Shown here piece by piece: positions 44,148 through 64,000 of a DNA stretch of 64,000 bases (within the stretch, counting starts at the first letter, position 1; each line of letters begins with the position of its first letter). Under the pieces are notes generated by a model, which searched no databases, was not told the origin of the DNA, and saw nothing but the letters and a program-made list of their open reading frames with translations. The DNA comes from Verrucomicrobiaceae bacterium. GTDB taxonomy: Bacteria; Pseudomonadota; Gammaproteobacteria; Pseudomonadales; CAMLJR01. A program made the translations under genes and the position numbers. The DNA lies in contig JAQGNY010000010.1 in assembly GCA_028293825.1 (NCBI GenBank), positions 384,008 to 448,007 of the forward strand, written 5' to 3'.

Positions 44148-46610
44148 GTGAAACGATCATCCGTTCGCAGTTTATTAACTGTCGGCACCGGCGCGTTTGT
44201 AGTTGTTGCGGGCCTACCGGTGGCACAAGCGCAAACCCAATCCGCTGGGTTGGAAGAGGTCTTCGTTACCGCGCGTAAGCGCGAAGAGGGCGTGCAGGCC
44301 GTTCCTATCTCGATCACTGCGTTGTCCGGTGAAGCATTAGATCAACGGGGTGTACGTGATTTAGAAAGTCTTAATTCGGTAATCCCAGGATTTCATTTCG
44401 GGGTTGAAGGTGGGAAGGGCAATACCTCGGTAATTTTGCGTGGCCTTTCTAAAATTCCGTTGGGCGAGGGCGTATCGTCCGTCGTGACTTATTTTGCCAA
44501 CATCGCGCTGCCACCTCATGGCGGCAATATTCCAACCTACGACATCGCAAATATCCAAGTGCTAAAAGGTCCTCAAGGCACATTGTTCGGACGCAATACA
44601 TTGGGTGGTGCGGTGGTGATTACGCCGGTAGCGCCGACGTATGAATTCGGCGGCTATATCAAAGGTGATTACGGCACCAAGAATTTCCGCAGTCTCGAAG
44701 GCGCGGTGAACGTGCCGATTGTGGAAGATAAAGTTGCGGTGCGTGTTGCTGGACAAATTCGGCGCCAAGACGGCTTGGTTAAAAATATCACCGGCGGGCC
44801 TGACACCAATAATACCCATCAAAATAATTACCGCATTTCGTTGCTGCTTAACCCGATCGATAATCTCGAAAGCACAACTGTTTACGACCACACCACCGCT
44901 ATCGAACGCAGCGGCGGTGAGCATCTGTACTCGGTCCAACCTGGATTTTTCCCGAGTGCACCCGCATTTTTGCCGGGTGGTGGCGTTGATGTTGCTAATC
45001 CGCAAACGCAGCTATTTGGCCTCGGCCAATTAATCATTCCCCAGCTGAATGCCTCGCTTGCTGCACAACACGCCGCAGGCTTTTGGTCGGGCGCGCCGCA
45101 TTTAACTAACGGCGGCAATGAAAACGAAAATCTATGGGGCATCGCTAACGATACCTCTTATGACACCGGCGTCGTGACGGTGCGCAATATCTTCGGCTAT
45201 CGACGCGTTAATCAATTCGAAAATCTCGACACGGCGAATGTCGGCAATATCACGCTGCCTTTAGGGCCCGGCGGTTCGGCAATTCCGTTTGTGATTTTCG
45301 ATGCCGCGCAGGAGTTGAAGCGTGAATACTTGTCCGATGAATTTCAACTTTTCGGCAACGCGTTTGACGATAAATTGGATTGGATTGTCGGCGCGTTCTA
45401 CAACAAAGATCAAAATACCGGGCCTAGTGGTTCGACGTTCACCCAGTTTTCGGCCGGTGGTGAACATGCTCCTGCTATTGCCGCCTTGGTGAAAAACGAA
45501 AACAAATCAATCTTCGGGCAGATCGGGCTCGATATCTCTCAATGGACCGTCGAGGGGCTGAAATTTAACGCCGGTTTACGTGAGTCCTGGGACAGCGTTT
45601 GGGCCTGCGGCGGCTCATTAAATCCGGATGAATTACTGAGCGTGGGTGAGTGTAAAGACAATGCGGGGAATGTCGGAGCGGACCCCGTTACCGGCGCACC
45701 TATCGCAGTGGGAATTACCACCACCAGCGGCAAAGATTTGAGCTGGACGATCGGATTCGATTGGCAGATTTCTCCCGATACATTGGCGTACATCACCAGT
45801 CGACGCGGCTATCGCGGCGTCAACGTCAACACACCGCTGTTCCAAACGCCGTTTACCACCGGCGGTACCGGTTGTCTTACAACCACCGGCGCTTGCCCCA
45901 ATCTGACTTCGTTTCAAAAAGTTGATCCTGAAAAGCTCACCGATCTTGAGTTGGGTGTGAAAAATGACTGGGCTGTCGGTGATGTCAAAGGCCGACTTAA
46001 CGTCGCCACGTTTGTTTCTAAATACGACAAGGCCGTGCAATTTCTCAATGTTCAGGCGCTGGGTATTCCAAACGGCACACCCGACACACCGACCAACTCA
46101 TCGGTCGGTGTGAACGCGGCCAATCTCACTATTTGGGGTGTCGAGGCCGATCTTACAGTGATCCCGGTCGATAGTTTGACGGTGACTTTTTCCGGCGCTT
46201 ATACCGAAGAGCACATCGACAAAGTGGTAACGCCCAGCGGCGGCTTATCGTTGAGTGCATCACAGATCACCTTGCCGAGTCCGAAATTTTCCGGGACTCT
46301 CGCTGCGGCGTGGACACTGCCAGTTCATCCGTTGGAGGGCGACGTGATCGTGAGCGGCGATTATTTTCACACCGATAAATATAGTGGGCAGGGCGGGCAG
46401 AATTTGCCGGGGTATGAGTTGGCTAACTTCCGACTGGATTGGAAAGGCATCGCTCAAACCAAGTTGGATTTAGAGGCCTATCTCAATAACGCATTCGATA
46501 CCCATTATTACGCGAGCCCAGATGTATTCTTGGGCAACGGTTTTCCCGTTCAAGTTCTTATCCAAGGGCTGCCGCGCGAATGGGGCGTGCAAGCTAAATA
46601 CAGTTTTTAA
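44148..46610 (+). CDS. TonB-dependent receptor
   Basis: GTG start with GGAGG 8 nt upstream. Signal peptide 'LLTVGTGAFVVVAGLPVAQA'. The plug has 'LEEVFVTARKREEGVQAVPISI' and 'IQVLKGPQGTLFGRNTLGGAV', and the terminal strand is '...GVQAKYSF'. Confidence 0.9.
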   Translation: MKRSSVRSLLTVGTGAFVVVAGLPVAQAQTQSAGLEEVFVTARKREEGVQAVPISITALSGEALDQRGVRDLESLNSVIPGFHFGVEGGKGNTSVILRGLSKIPLGEGVSSVVTYFANIALPPHGGNIPTYDIANIQVLKGPQGTLFGRNTLGGAVVITPVAPTYEFGGYIKGDYGTKNFRSLEGAVNVPIVEDKVAVRVAGQIRRQDGLVKNITGGPDTNNTHQNNYRISLLLNPIDNLESTTVYDHTTAIERSGGEHLYSVQPGFFPSAPAFLPGGGVDVANPQTQLFGLGQLIIPQLNASLAAQHAAGFWSGAPHLTNGGNENENLWGIANDTSYDTGVVTVRNIFGYRRVNQFENLDTANVGNITLPLGPGGSAIPFVIFDAAQELKREYLSDEFQLFGNAFDDKLDWIVGAFYNKDQNTGPSGSTFTQFSAGGEHAPAIAALVKNENKSIFGQIGLDISQWTVEGLKFNAGLRESWDSVWACGGSLNPDELLSVGECKDNAGNVGADPVTGAPIAVGITTTSGKDLSWTIGFDWQISPDTLAYITSRRGYRGVNVNTPLFQTPFTTGGTGCLTTTGACPNLTSFQKVDPEKLTDLELGVKNDWAVGDVKGRLNVATFVSKYDKAVQFLNVQALGIPNGTPDTPTNSSVGVNAANLTIWGVEADLTVIPVDSLTVTFSGAYTEEHIDKVVTPSGGLSLSASQITLPSPKFSGTLAAAWTLPVHPLEGDVIVSGDYFHTDKYSGQGGQNLPGYELANFRLDWKGIAQTKLDLEAYLNNAFDTHYYASPDVFLGNGFPVQVLIQGLPREWGVQAKYSF

Positions 46611-48263: not shown

Positions 48264-49172
48264 ATGCAGTTAGCTCCTGAGGAAATATTTTCATACGACC
48301 GTCAAATGTACCGGCAACTCGATGCCAATCTGCACGGGCGTAACTACGATGTACATGTCTCCGAGTTGGATTGGAGCGAAGCGGGGCAGGGTTCTATAAG
48401 TCTCGACTCTTCCTGCATGTTATCGCTGACTTATTACAAGCCGGACGCAACGTGGGAAGGTGCCTATACCAGCCCGTCTAGTAGCGATTTTCATACGGTT
48501 GGCAATTTAGTCTTTGTGCCGCCACGAACCACGCTGCATTGCCGCTGGGATGAAAATCGGCAGCAATCCGTAGCCTGTATTTTTGATGTGGATCGCATCA
48601 GCGCACTGAACGGTTTTGAGTGCGATTGGACCAGCATCGATCTTGCGCGCACGCTGGACGTGCAAAATCCATTTCTTATCGCATCGTTAAAGCGCCTCGC
48701 GGAAGAGGCAGCGACGCCCAGCTTCGCCAGCGAATTGCAGGCAGATTGCACGCTGGTATTGTTAACTCTGGAATTGCGCCGCCATTTTCTCGGTTTACAT
48801 AAAGAAGAAAAGCCGGCATCCGGAAAATTGAGCAGCCGGCAGATACGCGCACTCAATGAATTGCTCGACAGCTCAGCGGAAGTTGGACCGAATTTAAGTA
48901 GTCTTGCGCAAGCGTGCGATGTAACGGCGCGACAACTGCCGAATTTAATCAAGCGCACATACGGAATTACACTGCGCGATTACGTAGCAAACGCGCGTTT
49001 TAAGAAAGCAAAAGATTATCTGTTTGATCATAAATTGATGATTAAGCAAGTAGCACATTTATGCGGTTTCAAAAGTGCTGCGGCATTTTCGGCAGCTTTT
49101 CATAAGCAGACTGGCGCGACGCCGCAAGAGTTTCGTGAAGCTATTGGTCGCCGCTTGAAATTGTCGCACTGA
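48264..49172 (+). CDS. AraC family transcriptional regulator
   Basis: The C-terminal double HTH is 'LSSLAQACDVTARQLPNLIKRTYGITLRDYVANARFKKAKDYL...IKQVAHLCGFKSAAAFSAAFHKQTGATPQEFR'. Confidence 0.9.
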   Translation: MQLAPEEIFSYDRQMYRQLDANLHGRNYDVHVSELDWSEAGQGSISLDSSCMLSLTYYKPDATWEGAYTSPSSSDFHTVGNLVFVPPRTTLHCRWDENRQQSVACIFDVDRISALNGFECDWTSIDLARTLDVQNPFLIASLKRLAEEAATPSFASELQADCTLVLLTLELRRHFLGLHKEEKPASGKLSSRQIRALNELLDSSAEVGPNLSSLAQACDVTARQLPNLIKRTYGITLRDYVANARFKKAKDYLFDHKLMIKQVAHLCGFKSAAAFSAAFHKQTGATPQEFREAIGRRLKLSH

Positions 49173-49217
49173 ACAGCGCTTAGTTTTAATTTTCAGTATC
49201 GCTGAAAATAAAATTAG

Positions 49218-49248
49218 CGATAGTGATTGTATTTGATCGATAGTCATT
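49218..49248 (+). promoter_or_regulatory. direct-repeat operator candidate 1 (two CGATAGT half-sites 20 nt apart)
   Basis: cgatagtgatt (49218) and cgatagtcatt (49238), between the AraC gene and the TBDR gene. Confidence 0.4.
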
Positions 49249-54210: not shown

Positions 54211-54281
54211 ATTGTCAAGCTGGAGTGAACAGCCCATTGCGGCTGTTGCGGATTATCACGTCGTGAACGTGCTGTTACGAT
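54211..54281 (+). promoter_or_regulatory. conserved 71-nt intergenic element, copy A
   Basis: It aligns without gaps to 58390-58460 with 46/71 identities. Three perfect blocks sit at identical spacing (attgtcaagctg / attatca / gctgttacgat). An internal hairpin is aacagcc-cattgc-ggctgtt. Confidence 0.55.
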
Positions 54282-54605
54282 GAATTTCAAGCTATGACCA
54301 ACGCGCAATAAAAATTATTTCCGCTGTTGCGATTGCTGCTTTTTATTTGCGTATAGACATTGCTGCCTTATTTATGCGCTGGAACAGGCGTGCATAGAGC
54401 GCAGTTGTAAATAATTGTACAAATAGAAAGTTAGATCTAATCGCAGTGAAATTTATAAAGCTATCTATGCCATTGAGCGAAGGTTATCTCGATCGCTTGA
54501 TGCTTTGTCGTGGTTGTTAAAAGTGATAAAAAACTTATTGCGAGTGCCATGTCACTTAAAGATTTTTAAAGAATTCATAAAAAAATAATTGAGGTAGAAA
54601 TAATC

Positions 54606-56960
54606 ATGCACAATCGGAAAACTTTACTTTGTTTTACCGCTTTATCCACGACAGCGTTCGTTTGTATTGGTGCGGTAGCGGCTGAATCGAGCGCTCCGAA
54701 TGGTCAGCTCGATGAAATTATCGTGACCTCGCGCAGAACCAGTGAAACGTTGCAAACCACACCGGTTGCAGTAACGGCGATTAACGCGGCCGAGTTGGAT
54801 CGCCGTCAAGTATCGCAATTGGCCGACTTGCAACGCTCGACACCGAATCTAAGTATCGGCGGAGCCGGCACCGGTCCTGCGTCGATTGTTTATTTGGCGA
54901 TACGCGGCGAAGCGCAAAATGCGCCTGGTTCAACATCGGATCCGGCGGTGGGTATTTATGTCGATGGCGTTTATTACGGACGCCCGGTTATCGGCAATCT
55001 CGGCGTGCTCGACTTAGCGAGCGCAGAAATTTTGCGCGGACCGCAGGGCACATTGTTCGGTCGCAATACTACCGGCGGCGCGCTAAATCTCACCACACAG
55101 CAACCGACTAATAAATTCGAAGGTTATGTTAAAGCGGGTATTGGCAACTACAACCAACGGCAAACGGATGTGGTCGTTAATATTCCGTTAAAAGACGACG
55201 AATTGGCGGCGCGCTTCGCCGTGCGTTACGACGAGCGCGATGGCTACGGAAACAATCCAATTACCGGCAAAGATTTAGGCGATATCGATACCGAATCTTT
55301 TGCGCGCGCCACAATACGTTGGTCGCCAACTGATTTGCCGCTGACATTAACGGTTACCAGCGATTACACGCATTACAAAGATAACGGAACGATGTATGCC
55401 TCGTTTGTGAATCCGACGCACGTTGTCGTTCCGGCCGGTGGTTTTGGCCCTGGAACGCCCGCCGTGACGACTGCAGATTTGTTGGCGATGGGCGGCGTTT
55501 CAAATCCGACCTAATACAACGGTACCAAGAGTAAGTTTTATTCGTCGTATGGCGCACCGACTACCGGCAATTCGCAAATCGATAATCTGTTTAATAGAAA
55601 TTTAGCGAAGGGCAGCGCGGCGACATTGGAACTCGATCTCGGCGCGGTCGATGTGAAATCGATAACGGCTTACCGTGATTCGGATACCAGAAACTCTTCG
55701 GATATCGATGGCACGCCCGCCAATTTGGTGGGGGCCACTGGCATTTTTCAACAGCATCAATTCAGTGAAGAGTTGCAATTATCCGGCACAGTCGATGAGC
55801 TGGATTGGATAGGCGGATTCTTCTACTTCGATGAAGGCGGACACGAAGTTTCCGTATCGCAAGTGTTGGGTGTACTCGGTTCGCCATTTAATCTAAGCGA
55901 CGCCAGCTTTCGCGCGAAATCGACCGGCATTTTCGGTCAACTTATTTATCATCTTACCGACAGTCTGCGCGCCACGGTTGGCGCTCGATACACATGGGAC
56001 GAGCGCGAAATTAATCGACACGGTTTAACCGATATCGCCGCTGGTATTTGCGCGGTGGGAGTTAATATCGGCACGGCAGCTGGTAGCGATTGTAATGATC
56101 CACACAGTGCGCGTTTTCACTATCCGGCCTGGACCGCAGGCTTGGATTATCAATTGGCGGAAGATTTATTCGTTTACGCAAAAACCAGCGGCGCGGCGTT
56201 GGCGGGCGGATTTAATTCGCGCGTTACACCGCCTGGCTACGACGCATTCGCGCCCGAAAAAGTAAAAGATATAGAGATGGGTTTTAAAGCCGATTTGCTG
56301 GACCGCAAGTTGCGCACGAATACCGCTCTCTTCTATTCGTGGCGTAACAATGTTCAAAATATCGTGAACGAATTAAACAATGGGCAGTTAACGCAGTATC
56401 AGCGCAACGCCGGCAAGGTCGAGGCTTACGGAGCGGAATTCGAAGGCACCTTGTTGCCGTGGGACGGAATGGAAATTACCACTGCCGCCGCTTATTTGCA
56501 CGCGGCGTACGTTAAGGGCAGCTTTGAGGTTAATGGTTTGGGCGGCCCGGTCGATCGCAGCGACGAACGCGTGAATCAAGCACCAAAATGGACTGCCAGC
56601 TTGGGCGCCACCCAGTCGTTCGATAGCTTATGGGGCCGGCCTTCGTTCCACATCGATTACTCGTACGTGGCATCGCGTTCGTATTATCAAGACACACCCG
56701 ATCCCAATAATCCGGCGCAATCGCCTGCCGAATATGCGGAAGCGAATCGTCTGGGTGTGCTCGGTGGGTACGGTGTGTTTAACGCGCGTATCGGTCTTAA
56801 TGTCGATGAGCCCGATATCGAGGTTTCATTTTGGGCGCGTAATTTAACTGATACGAAATATTATCAGAATGAATTTAACAGCTGGACCGGGTTGGGTATT
56901 GCTGCTGAATACCAAGGTACGCCACGCACTTACGGCATGACGGTGGGCTATCACTGGTAA
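54606..56960 (+). pseudogene. TonB-dependent receptor interrupted by one in-frame TAA (55512-55514)
   Basis: ORFs 54606..55514 (signal peptide, plug 'LDEIIVTSRRTSETLQTTPVAV', 'ILRGPQGTLFGRNTTGGAL') and 55626..56960 (barrel, ends 'GMTVGYHW') are in the same frame. The 111 nt between them contain no other stop. Confidence 0.8.
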
Positions 56961-57029: not shown

Positions 57030-57305
57030 TTTCTTTATTGTTGCTTTGGAAGTGATCTGCAATATGCCGGGCGCTTGGATATTCACATTAATAGATCACG
57101 CCAGCGGTAATTTTACGTTTCGACAAATTAAGTTTTAATCCGCCGCCGTTTTCCCTTTGATCAAATAGTTTTTCCCGTGCTCTGATCGGTTTTGATTTAG
57201 ATTGGCGCGGTGTTCGGATTGATCAGATAACGCTGAAGTGAATCGCACTTACGTGGTATACCAATGCTGCGGTTGCGTTTCAAAAATAAAAATAGAGGAC
57301 TTGTT

Positions 57306-58259
57306 GTGCGAGCTACTGAATTTTCGGAATTACAAGCGTTCGGATTGGTGGCCAAATATAAAAGCTTTGTTGGTGCGGCGGATCAGCTCGGTATATCGCG
57401 CTCTGCTGTCACGCAAATAATTCAAAGTTTAGAGCGGCGCCTTGGCATGCGATTGCTTAACCGCACCACGCGCAGCGTATCGCCAACGCAGGCTGGGCAA
57501 GAATTGCTTGCTCGATTAGAGCCAGCATTAGCCGCGTTGGGGTCGGCCGTCAGCGATATGGAACAATTTCGCGATATTCCCGCCGGCGTGGTGCGCATTG
57601 CAGCTTCGCCGTTGGGCGCGAAGCTGCATCTGGAACCCATCATTGCAGGATTTCGCGAAGCCTATTCCGACGTTGTGCTCGATATCACCATCGATAATGC
57701 TGAGTATCACGATTGTGTGTCGGAAGGGTTCGATGCGGTGGTCGGTCTCGGTTGTCATATCGATAAAGACATGGTCGCGCTCGAACTCGGTGGACCGCTG
57801 CATTTGCGCGTCGTCGCATCGCCTGCCTACATCGCGCTGCACGGTATGCCCGCGACACCGCAGGATTTGCAAAATCATAATTGCATCGGCTTAAGAAAAA
57901 CTGGTCAGGCCGAATCGTTGAGTTGGCCGTTCGTCAGTGACGGCCAGCCTTTTTCCGTGCCGATTAATAAACCGATGATGGTCAACGATGAGCTTTTTGC
58001 GCTCGATGCGGCTGTTAAAGGTGCGGGTATTTTGTTGTGTGCAAAAGAAATGTCGGAGCATCTTATTCGCGATGGGCAACTGTGCTCACTGTTGGAATCT
58101 TGGTGCGTGGATTGGCCCGGTTTCTACTTGTATTACCCGAAGCACCAGCATACGCCGGTAGCCTTTCGCGTATTTAAGGATTACATTCGCAACGCTGAAA
58201 ATACGCATGCAATCGAGAATAAATCGGTGGCAGATATGCGCCGCTATCGATCGCGTTAA
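57306..58259 (+). CDS. LysR family transcriptional regulator
   Basis: 'FSELQAFGLVAKYKSFVGAADQLGISRSAVTQIIQSLERRLGMRLLNRTTRSVSPTQAG' is an N-terminal wHTH, followed by a LysR substrate-binding domain. The GTG 57306 start (AGAGGA 7 nt upstream) is preferred over ATG 57264. Confidence 0.85.
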   Translation: MRATEFSELQAFGLVAKYKSFVGAADQLGISRSAVTQIIQSLERRLGMRLLNRTTRSVSPTQAGQELLARLEPALAALGSAVSDMEQFRDIPAGVVRIAASPLGAKLHLEPIIAGFREAYSDVVLDITIDNAEYHDCVSEGFDAVVGLGCHIDKDMVALELGGPLHLRVVASPAYIALHGMPATPQDLQNHNCIGLRKTGQAESLSWPFVSDGQPFSVPINKPMMVNDELFALDAAVKGAGILLCAKEMSEHLIRDGQLCSLLESWCVDWPGFYLYYPKHQHTPVAFRVFKDYIRNAENTHAIENKSVADMRRYRSR

Positions 58260-58389
58260 TTGCACCCGTAAAATAATAATTCCTTTTAGCTGCGATTGCT
58301 TGACGCTGAAAATTACGGTTATTAATTAATTCTAAATTGGCTACGTTGTCGCTTTTGAAGCGGATATCGATTTTTTAAACGCACACTCG

Positions 58390-58460
58390 ATTGTCAAGCT
58401 GAGCTAAACAACGTATTCCAGTTGCCGTCCATTATCAGCAACCGTGCACGCTGTTACGAT
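58390..58460 (+). promoter_or_regulatory. conserved 71-nt intergenic element, copy B
   Basis: See copy A. It lies between the LysR gene and the sulfotransferase gene, 172 nt upstream of ATG 58632. Confidence 0.55.
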
Positions 58461-58631
58461 AACGACATATAAACAGTGATGAAGACACCGACCGGTAATT
58501 GCAGCACAGAACAATAAAGCTGCAGCTACCAGTGTGAGTAGTGTTGCTAATCGCACGTTGGAAAAAATAGATAGAAGTACTAAAGCGATACCAAATACCT
58601 AGTTCATTAAAAATAATAAGAGGATTTTACT

Positions 58632-59789
58632 ATGGGCCTCCATCAGCTCGACGCAGAGAAAATTTTACGGAGCTCTGCCTCTGAAGCAGGACTTGTGCAG
58701 TACATCGATGAGGGAATTCGCGCACGATTTTCATACGTGATTAATCTGCTCAACGAATTTGGTAGCCTCACCGATGAGGAATATCCGCCGGCCTTACACC
58801 AACTTAAAAGTATGGTGAAGCAGCGCTTGCTGGTCGCTCGTGATTGGGCTCTGCATCCGGAAATTCTCGATGAAGAAATAACGCAGCCGTTTTTTGTTAT
58901 CGGCAACGCGCGTGCCGGCACCACGTTTACGCAAATGTTATTGACGTGGGACGAAGGCCATCGAACACCGTTATATCGCGATGTGCGTCATCCATCGCCA
59001 CCGCGCGGCCTTGATCCCGCTGCAGATGCTGCCGCGTTGGAAGAAGAAAATAATTACGTGCGGTCTATGGTCGAGCGCTCGCCGCAGATGATGTCGGCGC
59101 ATCCGTATCTCGACCAGGGCGGCAATGGTGAAGCGGAAGACGAAGATGTTTATTCGCTCGATTTCAATATGGTTTATCCGCTGCAGTTATTGAATGTAGC
59201 CACTATGCCGCAAGCGCTAGTGCCGCCCGATCCGTTGCAGGCTCTGAAATTTCACAAAAATATGTTGAAGCAATTTCAGTGGAAAACACCGACACGGCGC
59301 TGGGTAGGTAAAGGTGTATTGCATCAGTACGTCATACCTACGTTGCTGCAGGTTTATCCCGATGCTGTTTGTTTTTGGACGCATCGTGCGCCGGAAGAAT
59401 TTATCGCATCGTTACTGGCGTTATTGGAAATACAGTACAAACCGTTTAATGGCGGTCGCTACAGCGTGCAGCCGCAAGAGATGGCTGAGCAATTAAAAGC
59501 GGGCATCGACTATTTCTTGAAAAGCGAAGCGACCTACGATTCGCGCATTCATCACATTCGTTTTCGCGATTTGGTTAAAGATCCGATAGCGGTGATCGCG
59601 CCTATTTATGAAAAAGCTGGAATTCCTTTTACCAAGAAATACGAGCAGACGCTGCGCGATCGTTTGGCGAGCTCGGATTACCGCGCCAATCGTTACGGAA
59701 AATTCGACTATACGTTGGAAAAATATGGCTTGAATCGCGAGGTATTACGCAAACAATTTTCCGAATACTGCGATCGATTCGAACTGTAA
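58632..59789 (+). CDS. sulfotransferase family protein (paralog of 25787..26950)
   Basis: 385 aa with 'FFVIGNARAGTTFTQMLL', 'WTHRAPEEFIASLLA' and 'QFQWKTPTRRWVGKGVLH'. Confidence 0.75.
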   Translation: MGLHQLDAEKILRSSASEAGLVQYIDEGIRARFSYVINLLNEFGSLTDEEYPPALHQLKSMVKQRLLVARDWALHPEILDEEITQPFFVIGNARAGTTFTQMLLTWDEGHRTPLYRDVRHPSPPRGLDPAADAAALEEENNYVRSMVERSPQMMSAHPYLDQGGNGEAEDEDVYSLDFNMVYPLQLLNVATMPQALVPPDPLQALKFHKNMLKQFQWKTPTRRWVGKGVLHQYVIPTLLQVYPDAVCFWTHRAPEEFIASLLALLEIQYKPFNGGRYSVQPQEMAEQLKAGIDYFLKSEATYDSRIHHIRFRDLVKDPIAVIAPIYEKAGIPFTKKYEQTLRDRLASSDYRANRYGKFDYTLEKYGLNREVLRKQFSEYCDRFEL

Positions 59790-59817
59790 ATGGCTCAAAA
59801 TAATTGAGCGGGTGCGT

Positions 59818-60876
59818 ATGAAAATTCGAGTGGTTCACTGCGGAACTGGAAATATTGGACGAGAAGCATTACGCGGCATTCTGCATCATCCCGATCTTGA
59901 GCTGGTCGGCCATTACGTCAATTCGCCCAGCAAGATTGGAATTGATTCGGGCACGCTAATCGGGGAGGCGCCGACTGGAATTATCGCAACCAATAATTGG
60001 GATGAGTTGTTGGATTTGAACGCCGATTGCCTTTCGTATTTTGGCGATTGCATGGGCCGCGAGTTGGAAGCGGTGACCGACATTTGTCGATTTCTCGAAC
60101 GCGGCACTAATGCGGTTACGTTGTCGGTATTTCCATGGGCGCATCCGGCGAGCTGTCCGCCGCAATTTCGCGATCCGGTGGACGCCGCCTGTAGCAAAGG
60201 TAATAGCACGGCGTATTTCACCGGTATCGATCCCGGCTTTGCGACAACCGATTTAGCGATTGCCGCGCTGGCTTTTGCCGATGAGGTTGACTGCGTTCGA
60301 GTCACTGAATTGGGTTGGTGGGGCGATTACACGGCGGAATATGTGTGTCGTGAATATTTTGGTTTTGGACAGAAGCCGGGCTTTAAACCGCTGCTTGTCA
60401 CCGGCGGATTTATGCGGCAAATGTGGGCGCCCACGCTGCATGAAATTGCGGATGCGCTCGGCGTAAAAATCGATGATTGGAAAGAGCTCTACGAAACCGA
60501 TTCGCTCGATCACGATATCGAAACGGGGTTTGGAACTGTACACGCCCGCACTGCCGCGGCGGTTCACTTTGAGCTGCAGGCTTTTTCGGGCGGGCGGCCG
60601 ATTGCTATTGTCGAGCATAACGATCTGGTCGGTCGCGGCGCCGGCAGTCAGTGGCGATTGCCGTTTGGTCCGGGTGATGTTTCGTACCGCATCGAAATCG
60701 AAGGCAACCCCAATTACACACTGGAATTAAATATGGATTATGACCCCGGTATCAAAATGACGGCGATGCCGCCGATAAATTCGATTCCTACCGTGTGCGC
60801 GGCAACGCCTGGATTGAAGGGTCCGCTCGATATTCCGCGCTATTGGTCGCGCAATGTGCGGCGCACAGTAAATTAA
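59818..60876 (+). CDS. NAD(P)-binding DapB-like / amine dehydrogenase-like family protein
   Basis: 'MKIRVVHCGTGNIGREALRGILHHPDLELVGHYV' is an N-terminal Rossmann of the dihydrodipicolinate-reductase-like family. It is ~352 aa. Confidence 0.6.
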   Translation: MKIRVVHCGTGNIGREALRGILHHPDLELVGHYVNSPSKIGIDSGTLIGEAPTGIIATNNWDELLDLNADCLSYFGDCMGRELEAVTDICRFLERGTNAVTLSVFPWAHPASCPPQFRDPVDAACSKGNSTAYFTGIDPGFATTDLAIAALAFADEVDCVRVTELGWWGDYTAEYVCREYFGFGQKPGFKPLLVTGGFMRQMWAPTLHEIADALGVKIDDWKELYETDSLDHDIETGFGTVHARTAAAVHFELQAFSGGRPIAIVEHNDLVGRGAGSQWRLPFGPGDVSYRIEIEGNPNYTLELNMDYDPGIKMTAMPPINSIPTVCAATPGLKGPLDIPRYWSRNVRRTVN

Positions 60877-60944
60877 TTAGATCATTAATTATAAATAGAA
60901 AAATAACGAAACTTATCTTTGTCATTTTCTGGGAGAACGAAATA

Positions 60945-62009
60945 GTGACTTATCGCATTGTTCACTGGGCTACCGGTCATACCGGAAAAATGGTTATCCG
61001 CGCAACGGCGGAACGTCCCGATTACAAAGCCGTGGCTGGATTTGTTTACAGCCAAGAAAAAGTCGGCAAGGATCTCGGCGATATTTGCGGCATCGAAAAG
61101 TTGGGGGTTATCGCCACTAATGACCGCGATGAAATTTTAAAAACCGAAGCGGATTGCGTTTTGTTTTTAGCGGGCGCTGAAGTCGATGTGCCGCAAAGCT
61201 TGCTCGATGTGTGTGCGCTGTTGGAATCGGGTAAAAATGTAATCGCCACCGCGGCACAATATATTTATCCAAAGTCGATGGGTGCGGATTTCGAAGCAGC
61301 TATACAAACGGCTTGCAAGAAGGGCGGCAGCACTTTTCATGGTCTTGGCATCATGCCGGGGTTTTTTGCAGAATCGTTGCCACTGTTGCTATCGCGATTG
61401 GCGCGCCGTGTCGATAAGCTCAACGCGTATGAAACATTGGCTTACGATAAATACCCCAGCAAATATCAGATGTTTGATTTGATGGGCTTCGGTTACGAGC
61501 CGAATGATCCGACACCTGTATTTTCGAATGTCGATTTGGTCGGAGACACGTGGCGGCATTCGGCGATGTTAATGGCAGATACGTTGGGTCTTAAATACGA
61601 CCGCATCGAAAACTTCCGCAATGTTGCCGTGACCGATCGCGATTTGCATGTGGCGTGCGGCACCATTCCGAAAGGTACTGTCGGCGCGATGAATTTTGGC
61701 GTGCGCGTAATCGCCGATGGCAAAACGCGAATCGTACTGCAGCATTACACACGAATGGCGGAACATTTAGCGCCGGAATGGCCGAGCGGTGACGGCTGGA
61801 CAGTGCTAATGGAAGGTGAGCCATCGATTTCCGCAAAAATTGAAATCGGTACGGAAGGCAGCATTATGCCGACTGACGATGCATGCATGGCGACCGGCAT
61901 GCATGCTATCCATGCCGTGCCGTATGTGATTGCAGCGAAACCCGGCATTTTGACGTTGGCCGATGTGCCGCCGGTGTGGGGTGTCGACGCATTTCATGTC
62001 GGCGCATAA
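60945..62009 (+). CDS. NAD(P)-binding DapB-like family protein (tandem paralog)
   Basis: GTG 60945 has GGGAGA upstream. 'TYRIVHWATGHTGKMVIRATAERPDYKAVAGFVY' has the same architecture and length as the preceding gene. Confidence 0.6.
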   Translation: MTYRIVHWATGHTGKMVIRATAERPDYKAVAGFVYSQEKVGKDLGDICGIEKLGVIATNDRDEILKTEADCVLFLAGAEVDVPQSLLDVCALLESGKNVIATAAQYIYPKSMGADFEAAIQTACKKGGSTFHGLGIMPGFFAESLPLLLSRLARRVDKLNAYETLAYDKYPSKYQMFDLMGFGYEPNDPTPVFSNVDLVGDTWRHSAMLMADTLGLKYDRIENFRNVAVTDRDLHVACGTIPKGTVGAMNFGVRVIADGKTRIVLQHYTRMAEHLAPEWPSGDGWTVLMEGEPSISAKIEIGTEGSIMPTDDACMATGMHAIHAVPYVIAAKPGILTLADVPPVWGVDAFHVGA

Positions 62010-62046
62010 AGTTTTAAAAATTAAGCGAATGGTTGTGAAGGAGTTG

Positions 62047-63507
62047 ATGTTGGAAAAAATTAAATTAATTCCGCTATCGACTGTCAATGCAGTGCCGGGT
62101 GATCAATTGATAACGCGACGCTCGGCGCTCCATTGGTCTGCAGCAACGTTAATTTTTGCAGCAATAAATTCAATTTCCAAAGCATCGGCATCGGTTAAAC
62201 CGAATGACACCGACCTTAAACGGATTGCGCGTGATATGACTGAAAAATCGATGCAACCAAGCAGCGCGTTGGCGACTAAGCAGCAGCGGTTAACCGAGCG
62301 GCGTGCGCTGGATATTTTTTCGAGTGCTACCGTTAAATCGGCAATGGCGAAAACCTTGGCGAGCTTTATTGCCGACCCCAATGCCAAACTCGCCGATCAG
62401 AAGCAGTTAATGCAGCAGAGCGTTAATGAACATTATTTTCATAGCTCGCTGATGGCCGCGAGCGAAACACCACGCAGTCCTGCATTTATTTGGTGTATCG
62501 CGCTGCCGCATCAATGGATGGGGTTGGATGTGCCTGGCAGTCGTTTTGGTCATGACAACACAGATAACGCTTACCGTATTGCGGCGATCGAGCCAACTTT
62601 GCAGTACAAAATTACCGGACATTTTGCTGGGCCGCGTCCATGCGATTTTAGTATCTGTGTGCTTCCCAGGCAGGTGGGCGACGATATCGCCGCCGATGTG
62701 AAAGCAATTATCGCGATCGACGAAATCGATGTGGATGCGGAAGGCTATTTTTCGATAACGGTCGATGCCTCTGCCACCGCAGGTCGACGTAATCATCTGT
62801 GCATTGCTGATGGCAAAGTTTTATTCGCGCGCGATACGCTGGCAAATTGGGAGGTGGAGCGTGCCAGTGAATTAAATATCCAACGCACCGATGGCCCCAC
62901 AGTGGATGATTTCGACGCGACGCAAGCAGTCACTCGCGCAGCCGCATTAGGCGCAACCATTGCGAATTTCTTTTTAAAAAATGTTCAGCACGGCATGTTC
63001 GAGCGCGCACCGATTAATACCATTCCTGTTCCGGTGCCGTCGGGTCCGCGCGGTGGTTTAACAACGCAGCTTGGCACTGTGGGGTTTTATACGCTGAATA
63101 ATGATGAGGCGCTGGTGATCAGCGCCGATCGACTCGGTGCGCGTTATCTGGGTATTCAAATTATCGATATGTGGATGGTCTCTTACGAATACAGCCAACA
63201 CACCAGTAGTTTGAATCACGAGCAAGCTGTCGCTAATGCGGACGGTCGCTATCGCTGGGTGGTTTCAGCGCAAGATCCCGGTGTTTTAAATTGGCTGGAT
63301 AGCGGCGGTAATGCGCACGGTAACGTGCTTATGCGTTGGCAAAAATTGCCAGCGGGAATCGATATAAATAATTGCGTTTCTGCCCAGATCGTAAAACTCA
63401 GTGCGCTGCGTGAAGTGCTACCCCCTGATACTCAGTATCTTGATGCGCAGGCGCGAGAAGAGCAGCGAGCACGGCGATTGCAAAGTTATCAATGGCGTGT
63501 TGTTTGA
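62047..63507 (+). CDS. DUF1214-like domain protein with Tat-like signal (exported paralog of 24484..25713)
   Basis: 'ITRRSALHWSAATLIFAAINSISKASA' is a twin-arginine-like leader. The C-terminal block 'NDEALVISADRLGARYLGI...NADGRYRWVVSAQDPGVLNWLD...VLMRWQKL' is homologous to the 24.5-kb protein. The start is 62047 or 62029. Confidence 0.5.
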   Translation: MLEKIKLIPLSTVNAVPGDQLITRRSALHWSAATLIFAAINSISKASASVKPNDTDLKRIARDMTEKSMQPSSALATKQQRLTERRALDIFSSATVKSAMAKTLASFIADPNAKLADQKQLMQQSVNEHYFHSSLMAASETPRSPAFIWCIALPHQWMGLDVPGSRFGHDNTDNAYRIAAIEPTLQYKITGHFAGPRPCDFSICVLPRQVGDDIAADVKAIIAIDEIDVDAEGYFSITVDASATAGRRNHLCIADGKVLFARDTLANWEVERASELNIQRTDGPTVDDFDATQAVTRAAALGATIANFFLKNVQHGMFERAPINTIPVPVPSGPRGGLTTQLGTVGFYTLNNDEALVISADRLGARYLGIQIIDMWMVSYEYSQHTSSLNHEQAVANADGRYRWVVSAQDPGVLNWLDSGGNAHGNVLMRWQKLPAGIDINNCVSAQIVKLSALREVLPPDTQYLDAQAREEQRARRLQSYQWRVV

Positions 63508-64000
63508 ACGCTGTTAAGTTTCTTTGGTTTTTTGTGTTGGTCTATTGAGGTCAGCATTCATTTATTTTATGTCCAGTCGATGCACTTGTTTTCCTCCCTG
63601 CGCGATATCGTTTGCGGCGAAGATTTTTATTTGTTCGCACCCGTAATTGCAACTCTTACTTAAATAATATTTCTATGATTTAGCTGGATTATAAAAAATA
63701 AATAGTTGGTGAGATTTATTATTAATAGTTGATGTTGAAACCTAAAGTTTAAATAACGCAATAAGAATAACTGTTTTTATAGTTGGTGCTGTGGATTTCG
63801 TTGAAATTTTCTTTCGGAAAATTTTATTTTTCCTCATTTGAAACTATTTACCTGTATTTGCCGTCGAGTTAAATAATTATTGTTGCTTGCCAAGTGCGCC
63901 CGAGTATTCTGCTTGCTGCTGTACGTGCATAGGTGATCAATGAATAACAATAAAAAAATAGACTCCTCAAATTACGATCGTCGCTCCGAATGGAAGCCAT

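Follow-up and report, generated by a model that had tools for sequence, protein, structure and literature searches.

Within the window, i.e. the whole stretch of 64,000 nucleotides analysed here (C55:384008-448007 of genome G000), a 71-nt stretch of non-coding DNA recurs upstream of two genes, one encoding a TonB-dependent receptor and the other a sulfotransferase. The preliminary description of this DNA had offered two readings of the element, either a cis-regulatory RNA in the manner of a riboswitch leader or a composite operator shared by a regulon. Hence, the question raised by this locus is what kind of element has been kept in front of these genes and which factor reads it. Our analysis points to selectively maintained cis-regulatory DNA, most probably the LysR-dependent extended -10 promoter of four operons.

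A 71-bp element shared by two loci of the window

The two copies and the genes downstream of them are located as follows.

54211..54281, plus strand: copy A of the 71-bp module (R2 model 69.6 bits, E 7e-21; 46/71 identities to copy B)
54606..56960, plus strand: TonB-dependent receptor gene downstream of copy A (two same-frame open reading frames; Plug and barrel domains)
58390..58460, plus strand: copy B of the 71-bp module (R2 model 59.3 bits, E 1.2e-17)
58632..64000, plus strand: copy B operon (Sulfotransfer_3, two DapB-like oxidoreductases, a 514-aa DUF1214-related protein and a second sulfotransferase)

The likeness of copies A and B is genuine and far beyond chance. Realignment without gaps confirmed the 46 identities over 71 positions and the three perfect blocks (positions 1-12, 42-48 and 61-71) counted in the preliminary description, and the binomial probability of at least 46 of 71 identities at local base composition is 1.2e-11. 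In an ungapped scan of both strands of the 4.34 Mb genome with copy A, copy B scored 46 identities and everything else 39 or fewer. The flanks show no similarity on either side, the likeness stopping sharply at both ends. Measured to the gene starts at 54606 and 58632, the distances are 324 and 171 nt, in essential agreement with the 325 and 172 nt given earlier. A weaker third relative, suspected at 49169-49230, did not hold up: the model built from seven sequences matches it in its first part only (4.0 bits, E 2.1), the distance from its TGT to its ACA falls short by 5 nt, and it was discarded as a chance-level candidate.

The TonB-dependent receptor gene (54606-56960) carries one in-frame stop at 55512-55514, with both open reading frames in the same frame. 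Since the module of copy A is fully intact, an inactivation of this gene, if real, would be recent. In the copy B operon, the tandem DapB_N/DAP_DH_C-like genes (59812-62009) are paralogues sharing 28% identity; as their longest open reading frames overlap by about 80 nt, the second one probably starts further downstream. The second sulfotransferase gene of this operon starts at about 63940 and runs past the end of the window.

Further copies in the genome and on metagenome contigs

Additional copies, for which the preliminary description had proposed to search, were found in G000 by a block-spacing scan followed by profile searches (two, on contigs C33 and C20) and on metagenome contigs (three).

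C33:84214-84283, plus strand: copy C, from the block-spacing scan and profile search
C20:55841-55772, minus strand: copy D, from the block-spacing scan and profile search
L100 1744-1814: copy E (35 bits, E 1.5e-10)
L104 437-507: copy F, preceded by the C-terminus of a LysR gene
L105 46-116: copy G, upstream of the orthologous sulfotransferase gene

A model built from all seven copies retrieves copies A to D only from G000, the next match having an E value of 0.26. All seven lie upstream of TonB-receptor or Sulfotransfer_3/DUF1214 operons and are co-oriented with them, so that the orientation noted earlier for copies A and B holds throughout. The operon behind copy D comprises genes for EthD, a TonB receptor, an SDR, SnoaL_2, Sulfotransfer_3, DUF1214 and a further SDR, and the sulfotransferase gene behind copy C is cut off by the end of contig C33. 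The proteins encoded behind different copies are only distantly related, with 28% identity between the TonB receptors of loci A and D and 23% between the sulfotransferases of loci B and D. The predicted leaders between module and start codon measure about 165-350 nt and are not conserved between orthologous copies (54282-54605, 58461-58631, L100 1815-2012).

The ends of contigs C55 (447947-448157) and C33 (84638-84848) share a stretch of 211 nt at 94% identity, whose last 127 nt are also shared with the start of contig C3 (C3:1-1206). These common ends indicate two near-identical sulfotransferase gene copies that were collapsed in the assembly, one driven by copy C and the other located behind the final gene of the operon that copy B precedes.

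The three orthologous copies on L100, L104 and L105 score 29-35 bits (E 1e-8 to 1e-10). On L100, a metagenome contig of 4.3 kb, the order is LysR, 195 nt, element, 198 nt, Sulfotransfer_3 and DUF1214-like gene. When the intergenic regions holding copies E, F and G are aligned, the 71-bp element is the sole conserved island. Similarly, the genes following copies C and E are orthologous (74% protein identity), and the intergenic DNA cannot be aligned outside the element; judged from these alignments, the conservation of copies C and E is a phylogenetic footprint.

Beyond these organisms, the element was not found in 12 species of the same genus and about 140 other related genomes (species representatives). 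BLAST searches of 40 related genomes with each 71-mer gave chance matches only, and the strict three-block pattern had no match in the genome contigs. A looser pattern, applied to genome and metagenome contigs, returned matches within coding sequences of AT-rich organisms, which were rejected as chance. Among them, the match on L097 and L098, two identical contigs of 1897 nt, lies within an apparent helicase-type gene and the one on L099 within a membrane-protein open reading frame, both judged by eye. A literature search on the DUF1214/sulfotransferase/TonB-dependent cassette yielded nothing relevant.

Anatomy of the element

Alignment of the seven copies (A-G) allows the element to be dissected into a dyad and two promoter-like hexamers, located in the window as follows.

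54212..54232, no strand assigned: copy A dyad, read as LysR recognition site (TGT-N13-ACA with Y6-N11-A18)
58391..58411, no strand assigned: copy B dyad, TTGTcaAGCTgAGCTaaACAA, with 8/10 symmetric pairs the best of the genomic copies
54253..54258, plus strand: predicted -35 TTATCA of copy A, in the ATTATC block, 17 nt before the -10
58432..58437, plus strand: predicted -35 TTATCA of copy B, from the seven-copy alignment
54273..54281, plus strand: predicted extended -10 TGtTACGAT of copy A
58452..58460, plus strand: predicted extended -10 TGtTACGAT of copy B, from the seven-copy alignment

Mean information amounts to 1.2 bits within the element as compared to 0.47 bits in the flanks. Invariant in all seven copies are ATTGT (positions 1-5), C10, T16, A18, A19, A21, T27 and T28, followed by ATTATC (42-47), TGTTA (63-67) and AT (70-71). 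Positions 2-22 form an imperfect palindrome of 19-21 bp, TGTT-n-AG-N5-CT-n-AACA, centred on position 12. Counted over ten sites, the pairs 3/21, 4/20, 5/19 and 8/16 are complementary in 8-10 of them, or in 7-10 if pair 6/18 is included. The latter pair provides a T6-N11-A18 motif in five of the seven copies (seven of the ten sites), copies A and B having C6 instead. By its letters, this part of the element is an imperfect palindrome with the T-N11-A core expected of a binding site for LysR-type regulators.

The predicted -35 hexamer TTATCR (positions 43-48) matches the consensus at four of six positions and is overlapped by the invariant ATTATC, which includes two bases that deviate from the -35 consensus. 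A plain promoter leaves the invariance of these non-consensus bases unexplained. Positions 63-71 read as an extended -10, TG-T-TAnnAT, whose TG, T, A, A and T are the same in every copy and which varies solely at two non-TATAAT positions (CG, GG or GC); its hexamer likewise matches at four of six positions. Six copies have a spacer of 17 nt between both hexamers, copy D one of 16 nt, and the only other indel, in copy C, falls between dyad and -35. The element thereby displays the putative features of a sigma-70 extended -10 promoter, i.e. TG, TAnnnT and a -35-like hexamer 16-18 nt upstream. A simple promoter scan did not list these hexamers, as each matches at just four of six positions. Such weak hexamers suit an activator-dependent promoter, yet they also lower the confidence in the assignment. 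Additionally, block 3 resembles the left half-site of the dyad (TGTTA) and could therefore be a protein contact instead of, or besides, a -10.

From the extended -10, transcription is predicted to start at about 54287-54289 for copy A and 58466-58468 for copy B. With a start about 7 nt past position 71, the centre of the dyad would fall at about -66.

Linkage to LysR-type regulators

The candidate binding protein is encoded between the gene behind copy A and copy B.

57306..58259, plus strand: LysR-type regulator gene, candidate binder (GTG start at 57306, longest open reading frame from 57264; Pfam HTH_1 and LysR_substrate)

Copy B begins 130 nt after the stop of this gene (58259). Altogether, LysR genes occur in five of the seven loci, namely immediately before copies B, E and F, downstream of the gene behind copy A and at the far end of the operon behind copy D, which bears out the tie to the adjacent LysR regulator suggested in the preliminary description. 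A linked regulator gene, as expected for promoters of LysR-type regulators, can thus be assigned to the module from gene order, although none of these genes is divergent, their placement being co-directional or distal. The element-linked LysR proteins are 57-88% identical where compared. The window protein shares 61% identity with the paralogue encoded on C20, where the copy D operon ends, its sole close paralogue in G000. Of the LysR homologues in a large protein collection, that of L100 is the closest, with 57% identity to the window protein and 70% to the C20 paralogue, and the LysR C-terminus on L104 is 88% identical to the L100 protein. All three full-length element-linked proteins have the recognition helix SRSxVTQ(I/T)IQxLE in common, which is replaced by SPSALSQTIRxLE in LysR homologues of 45-48% identity. 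In the related genomes that are free of the element, no close orthologue of the window LysR (above 40% identity) was found. For copy C, no LysR gene is located nearby on the contig, and a GntR-family gene lies about 1 kb upstream.

Sulfotransferase orthologues of 61-70% identity were sampled on seven further contigs, where both the element and a LysR neighbour are absent and where, in most cases, a divergent TetR-family gene adjoins the sulfotransferase gene. The element, hence, travels with the LysR regulator and not with the sulfotransferase gene. The pair of Sulfotransfer_3 and DUF1214 genes, often accompanied by TonB receptor, SDR and EthD genes, constitutes a cassette that is widely conserved (L106, L107, L108, L110, L111, L112). 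It looks as if its regulator had been swapped, with TetR in most sampled lineages and LysR plus the 71-bp module here.

Regarding the LysR genes themselves, both paralogues (57150-57311; C20 ~46010-46165) have a GTG start and, about 50 nt before it, carry TGTGGTATA with an A/T-rich stretch behind; from its sequence, TGTGGTATA may be their own extended -10 promoter. The LysR box was not seen upstream of either paralogue, so that autoregulation through this box is not evident, and comparison of the regions upstream of the three LysR genes revealed no clear common box.

The same box is also encountered in more distant organisms. In G038, G035 and G127, each belonging to a family other than that of the window genome, a box of the form ATTGT(T/G)nnGC-N5-T(G/A)AAyn abuts the start codons of LysR genes in a divergent arrangement.

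G038, L056/L114 ~1501-1560: distant box
G035, L115 1501-1551, minus strand: distant box
G127, L083 near 1490: distant box

The LysR proteins of G038 and G127 are 36% identical to the window protein; that of G035 is less closely related and falls short of the E 1e-45 cut-off. Against the model of the seven copies, the site in G038 reaches 32 bits (E 2.3e-7), and both G038 and G035 have a -10-like hexamer at the element's own distance from the box. The divergent neighbour on the target side is an aldo/keto-reductase-like gene in these two genomes. This distribution suggests that the box is older than the 71-bp module.

Comparison with known LysR-type systems

Canonical LysR-type promoters combine a palindromic T-N11-A site near -65 with contacts around -35 (PMC4834489; PMC2724274). 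The element resembles such classical promoters in that its palindromic T-N11-A site would lie about 66 nt before the predicted start, its conserved bases overlap the predicted -35, the regulator gene resides in the same locus and the basal -35 is weak, as expected for activator dependence; its conserved span is 71 bp as compared to a typical LysR-bound stretch of 50-60 bp. It differs from them in conservation that reaches through the -10, with one type of module serving four operons. Moreover, the regulator gene is not divergent here; it is either co-directional, in the order LysR, element, target, or located at the far end of the operon, and as a consequence the promoter of the regulator gene itself is not overlapped by the box.

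Among solved structures in the PDB, CrgA of Neisseria meningitidis (3HHG) matches the window LysR best, over its full length (E 1.8e-32). CrgA protects a 63-bp region between crgA and mdaB that contains two T-N11-A boxes 15 bp apart (PMC2724274). This footprint is comparable to the 71-bp conserved span, whereas a single conserved T-N11-A (positions 6/18) is found in the element, in a box of unrelated sequence; a search of the seven-copy alignment for a second such box found none. A further point of comparison is PltR, for which a regulon-specific lys box of 22 bp is reported (PMC3382589). Both systems have a dyad of about 20 bp that belongs to one clade of LysR-type regulators and lies upstream of an operon activated by them, in our case by prediction, while sequence, organism and target genes differ.

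Alternative explanations

The reading as a transcribed, structured cis-regulatory RNA, in which blocks 1 and 3 would close around a hairpin, would account for the partial complementarity of these blocks and for the co-orientation of the element with its downstream genes, and copy A can indeed form a hairpin of 7 bp. The hairpin described earlier is thus real in copy A and, shortened to 4 bp, in copy B. It is not conserved in copies C to G, however, and is 52% paired over all seven. The proposed helices as a whole are 70% paired as compared to 69% in column shuffles, and the observed covariation was matched by 64 of 500 shuffles, so that in the covariation check called for in the preliminary description neither pairing nor covariation rose above shuffled alignments. 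The pair G4:C68 is broken in five of the seven copies, and ATTGT never changes in compensation. RNAalifold gave -3.08 kcal/mol with a positive, i.e. unfavourable, covariation term, single-sequence folds have z-scores of 0.01-1.07, and the minimum-energy fold is a different one in each copy. Additionally, no relevant match was obtained in Rfam at E values up to 1, and no conserved promoter able to transcribe the element was seen upstream of it. With neither a covarying structure nor stability or an Rfam family to characterise it as a riboswitch, the element is very improbable as a regulatory RNA. At least equally improbable is that it represents a small mobile repeat of the MITE type or the remnant of a decayed gene, both of which the preliminary description had allowed for, or a chance likeness. 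Several copies in one genome, weakly inverted ends and the absence from the related genomes searched would fit a mobile repeat. The genome, however, holds just four copies, each oriented alike with respect to operons of related function, and the flanks show no target-site duplications; terminal inverted repeats combined with such duplications, or many context-free copies, as typical of MITEs, were not found. Orthologous copies elsewhere have diverged between the blocks and kept the blocks themselves. Variation is without 3-nt periodicity, no reading frame conserved across the copies was seen, and the genome-wide probability of a chance likeness is about 1e-4.

More weight has to be given to a DNA control region that is read by another factor, such as an AraC- or GntR-type regulator or an alternative sigma factor, or at which LysR represses, even though we regard this as unlikely. 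The window holds an AraC-family gene (48264-49172) as well as a pair of ECF sigma and anti-sigma genes, and copy C has the GntR-family gene and not a LysR gene in its vicinity. TGAACA (positions 16-21) resembles -35 motifs of ECF sigma factors and might serve as -35 for an alternative sigma factor, and in copy B CGTC is found 16 nt downstream of AAAC. A CGT-type -10 at the distance required for ECF sigma factors is absent from the other six copies, however, and an ECF-type promoter (AAC-N16-CGT) was rejected, as it fits copy B only. TGAACA, moreover, forms a dyad with TGTT in 7-10 of the ten sites, which fits a dimeric DNA-binding protein, and it is LysR genes, not AraC or ECF genes, that accompany the element on the independent contigs L100 and L104 and adjoin the box in G038, G035 and G127. 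Two further promoter candidates were discarded. A sigma-54 motif looked for by eye downstream of copy A gave one candidate with a wrong GG-to-GC spacing, and a minus-strand promoter using the perfect TTGACA in block 1 has no matching -10 in copy A. On the minus strand of copy B (58370-58397), TTGACA is followed after 16 nt by AAAAAT (promoter score 10/12); this may represent a divergent promoter that copy B alone possesses, or a coincidence.

Proposed function and implications

We consider it probable that the 71-bp element is a LysR-type promoter-operator module acting at the level of DNA, present four times in this genome, in which each part has a role of its own. The alternative of a composite operator common to a regulon, as raised in the preliminary description, is supported to this extent, with a LysR dyad joined to a -35/extended -10 promoter. 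The dyad at positions 2-22 with its T-N11-A core would be the recognition site of a LysR-type regulator, the candidates being the product of the gene at 57306-58259 and the C20 paralogue (61% identity). Positions ~38-48 (GGATTATCR), overlapping the weak -35 (TTATCR), would provide a secondary contact for activation, and positions 63-71 would act as extended -10 17 nt after the -35, with transcription predicted to start some 7 nt past the element and the dyad centred at about -66. The copies, their pattern of conservation, the dyad, the spacings and the linkage to genes are observed directly, whereas the start of transcription and the binding of this regulator are predicted. We infer that the bound regulator activates, rather than represses, the downstream TonB-receptor and sulfotransferase/DUF1214/oxidoreductase operons, probably triggered by a small-molecule inducer.

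A more far-reaching version, in which the 71-bp unit is a portable cassette that was copied in front of operons and, at the same time, an unusually long LysR operator extending from -76 to -10, appears rather improbable to us. It builds on the observation that the downstream genes are old paralogues (28% and 23% identical), yet 30 block positions are identical between copies A and B, so that the module may have been copied rather than inherited together with them. As block 3 repeats the half-site TGTTA, the DNA contacts of a LysR oligomer resembling CrgA, possibly of higher order, might extend from -76 to the -10. If true, copying of the module before different operons would recruit these operons into one LysR regulon.

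The LysR box and its regulon are new, whereas the kind of element is already well known; the mechanism is textbook and, hence, the general interest modest. For the probable LysR-dependent module itself, the analysis provides a concrete predicted operator and promoter for an uncharacterised clade of LysR-type regulators. It also defines the likely regulon, consisting of TonB-dependent receptors and the Sulfotransfer_3/DUF1214/SDR/EthD/SnoaL cassettes of marine proteobacteria. As these cassettes are widespread and of unknown function, the inducer of the LysR regulator would offer a route to their substrate.
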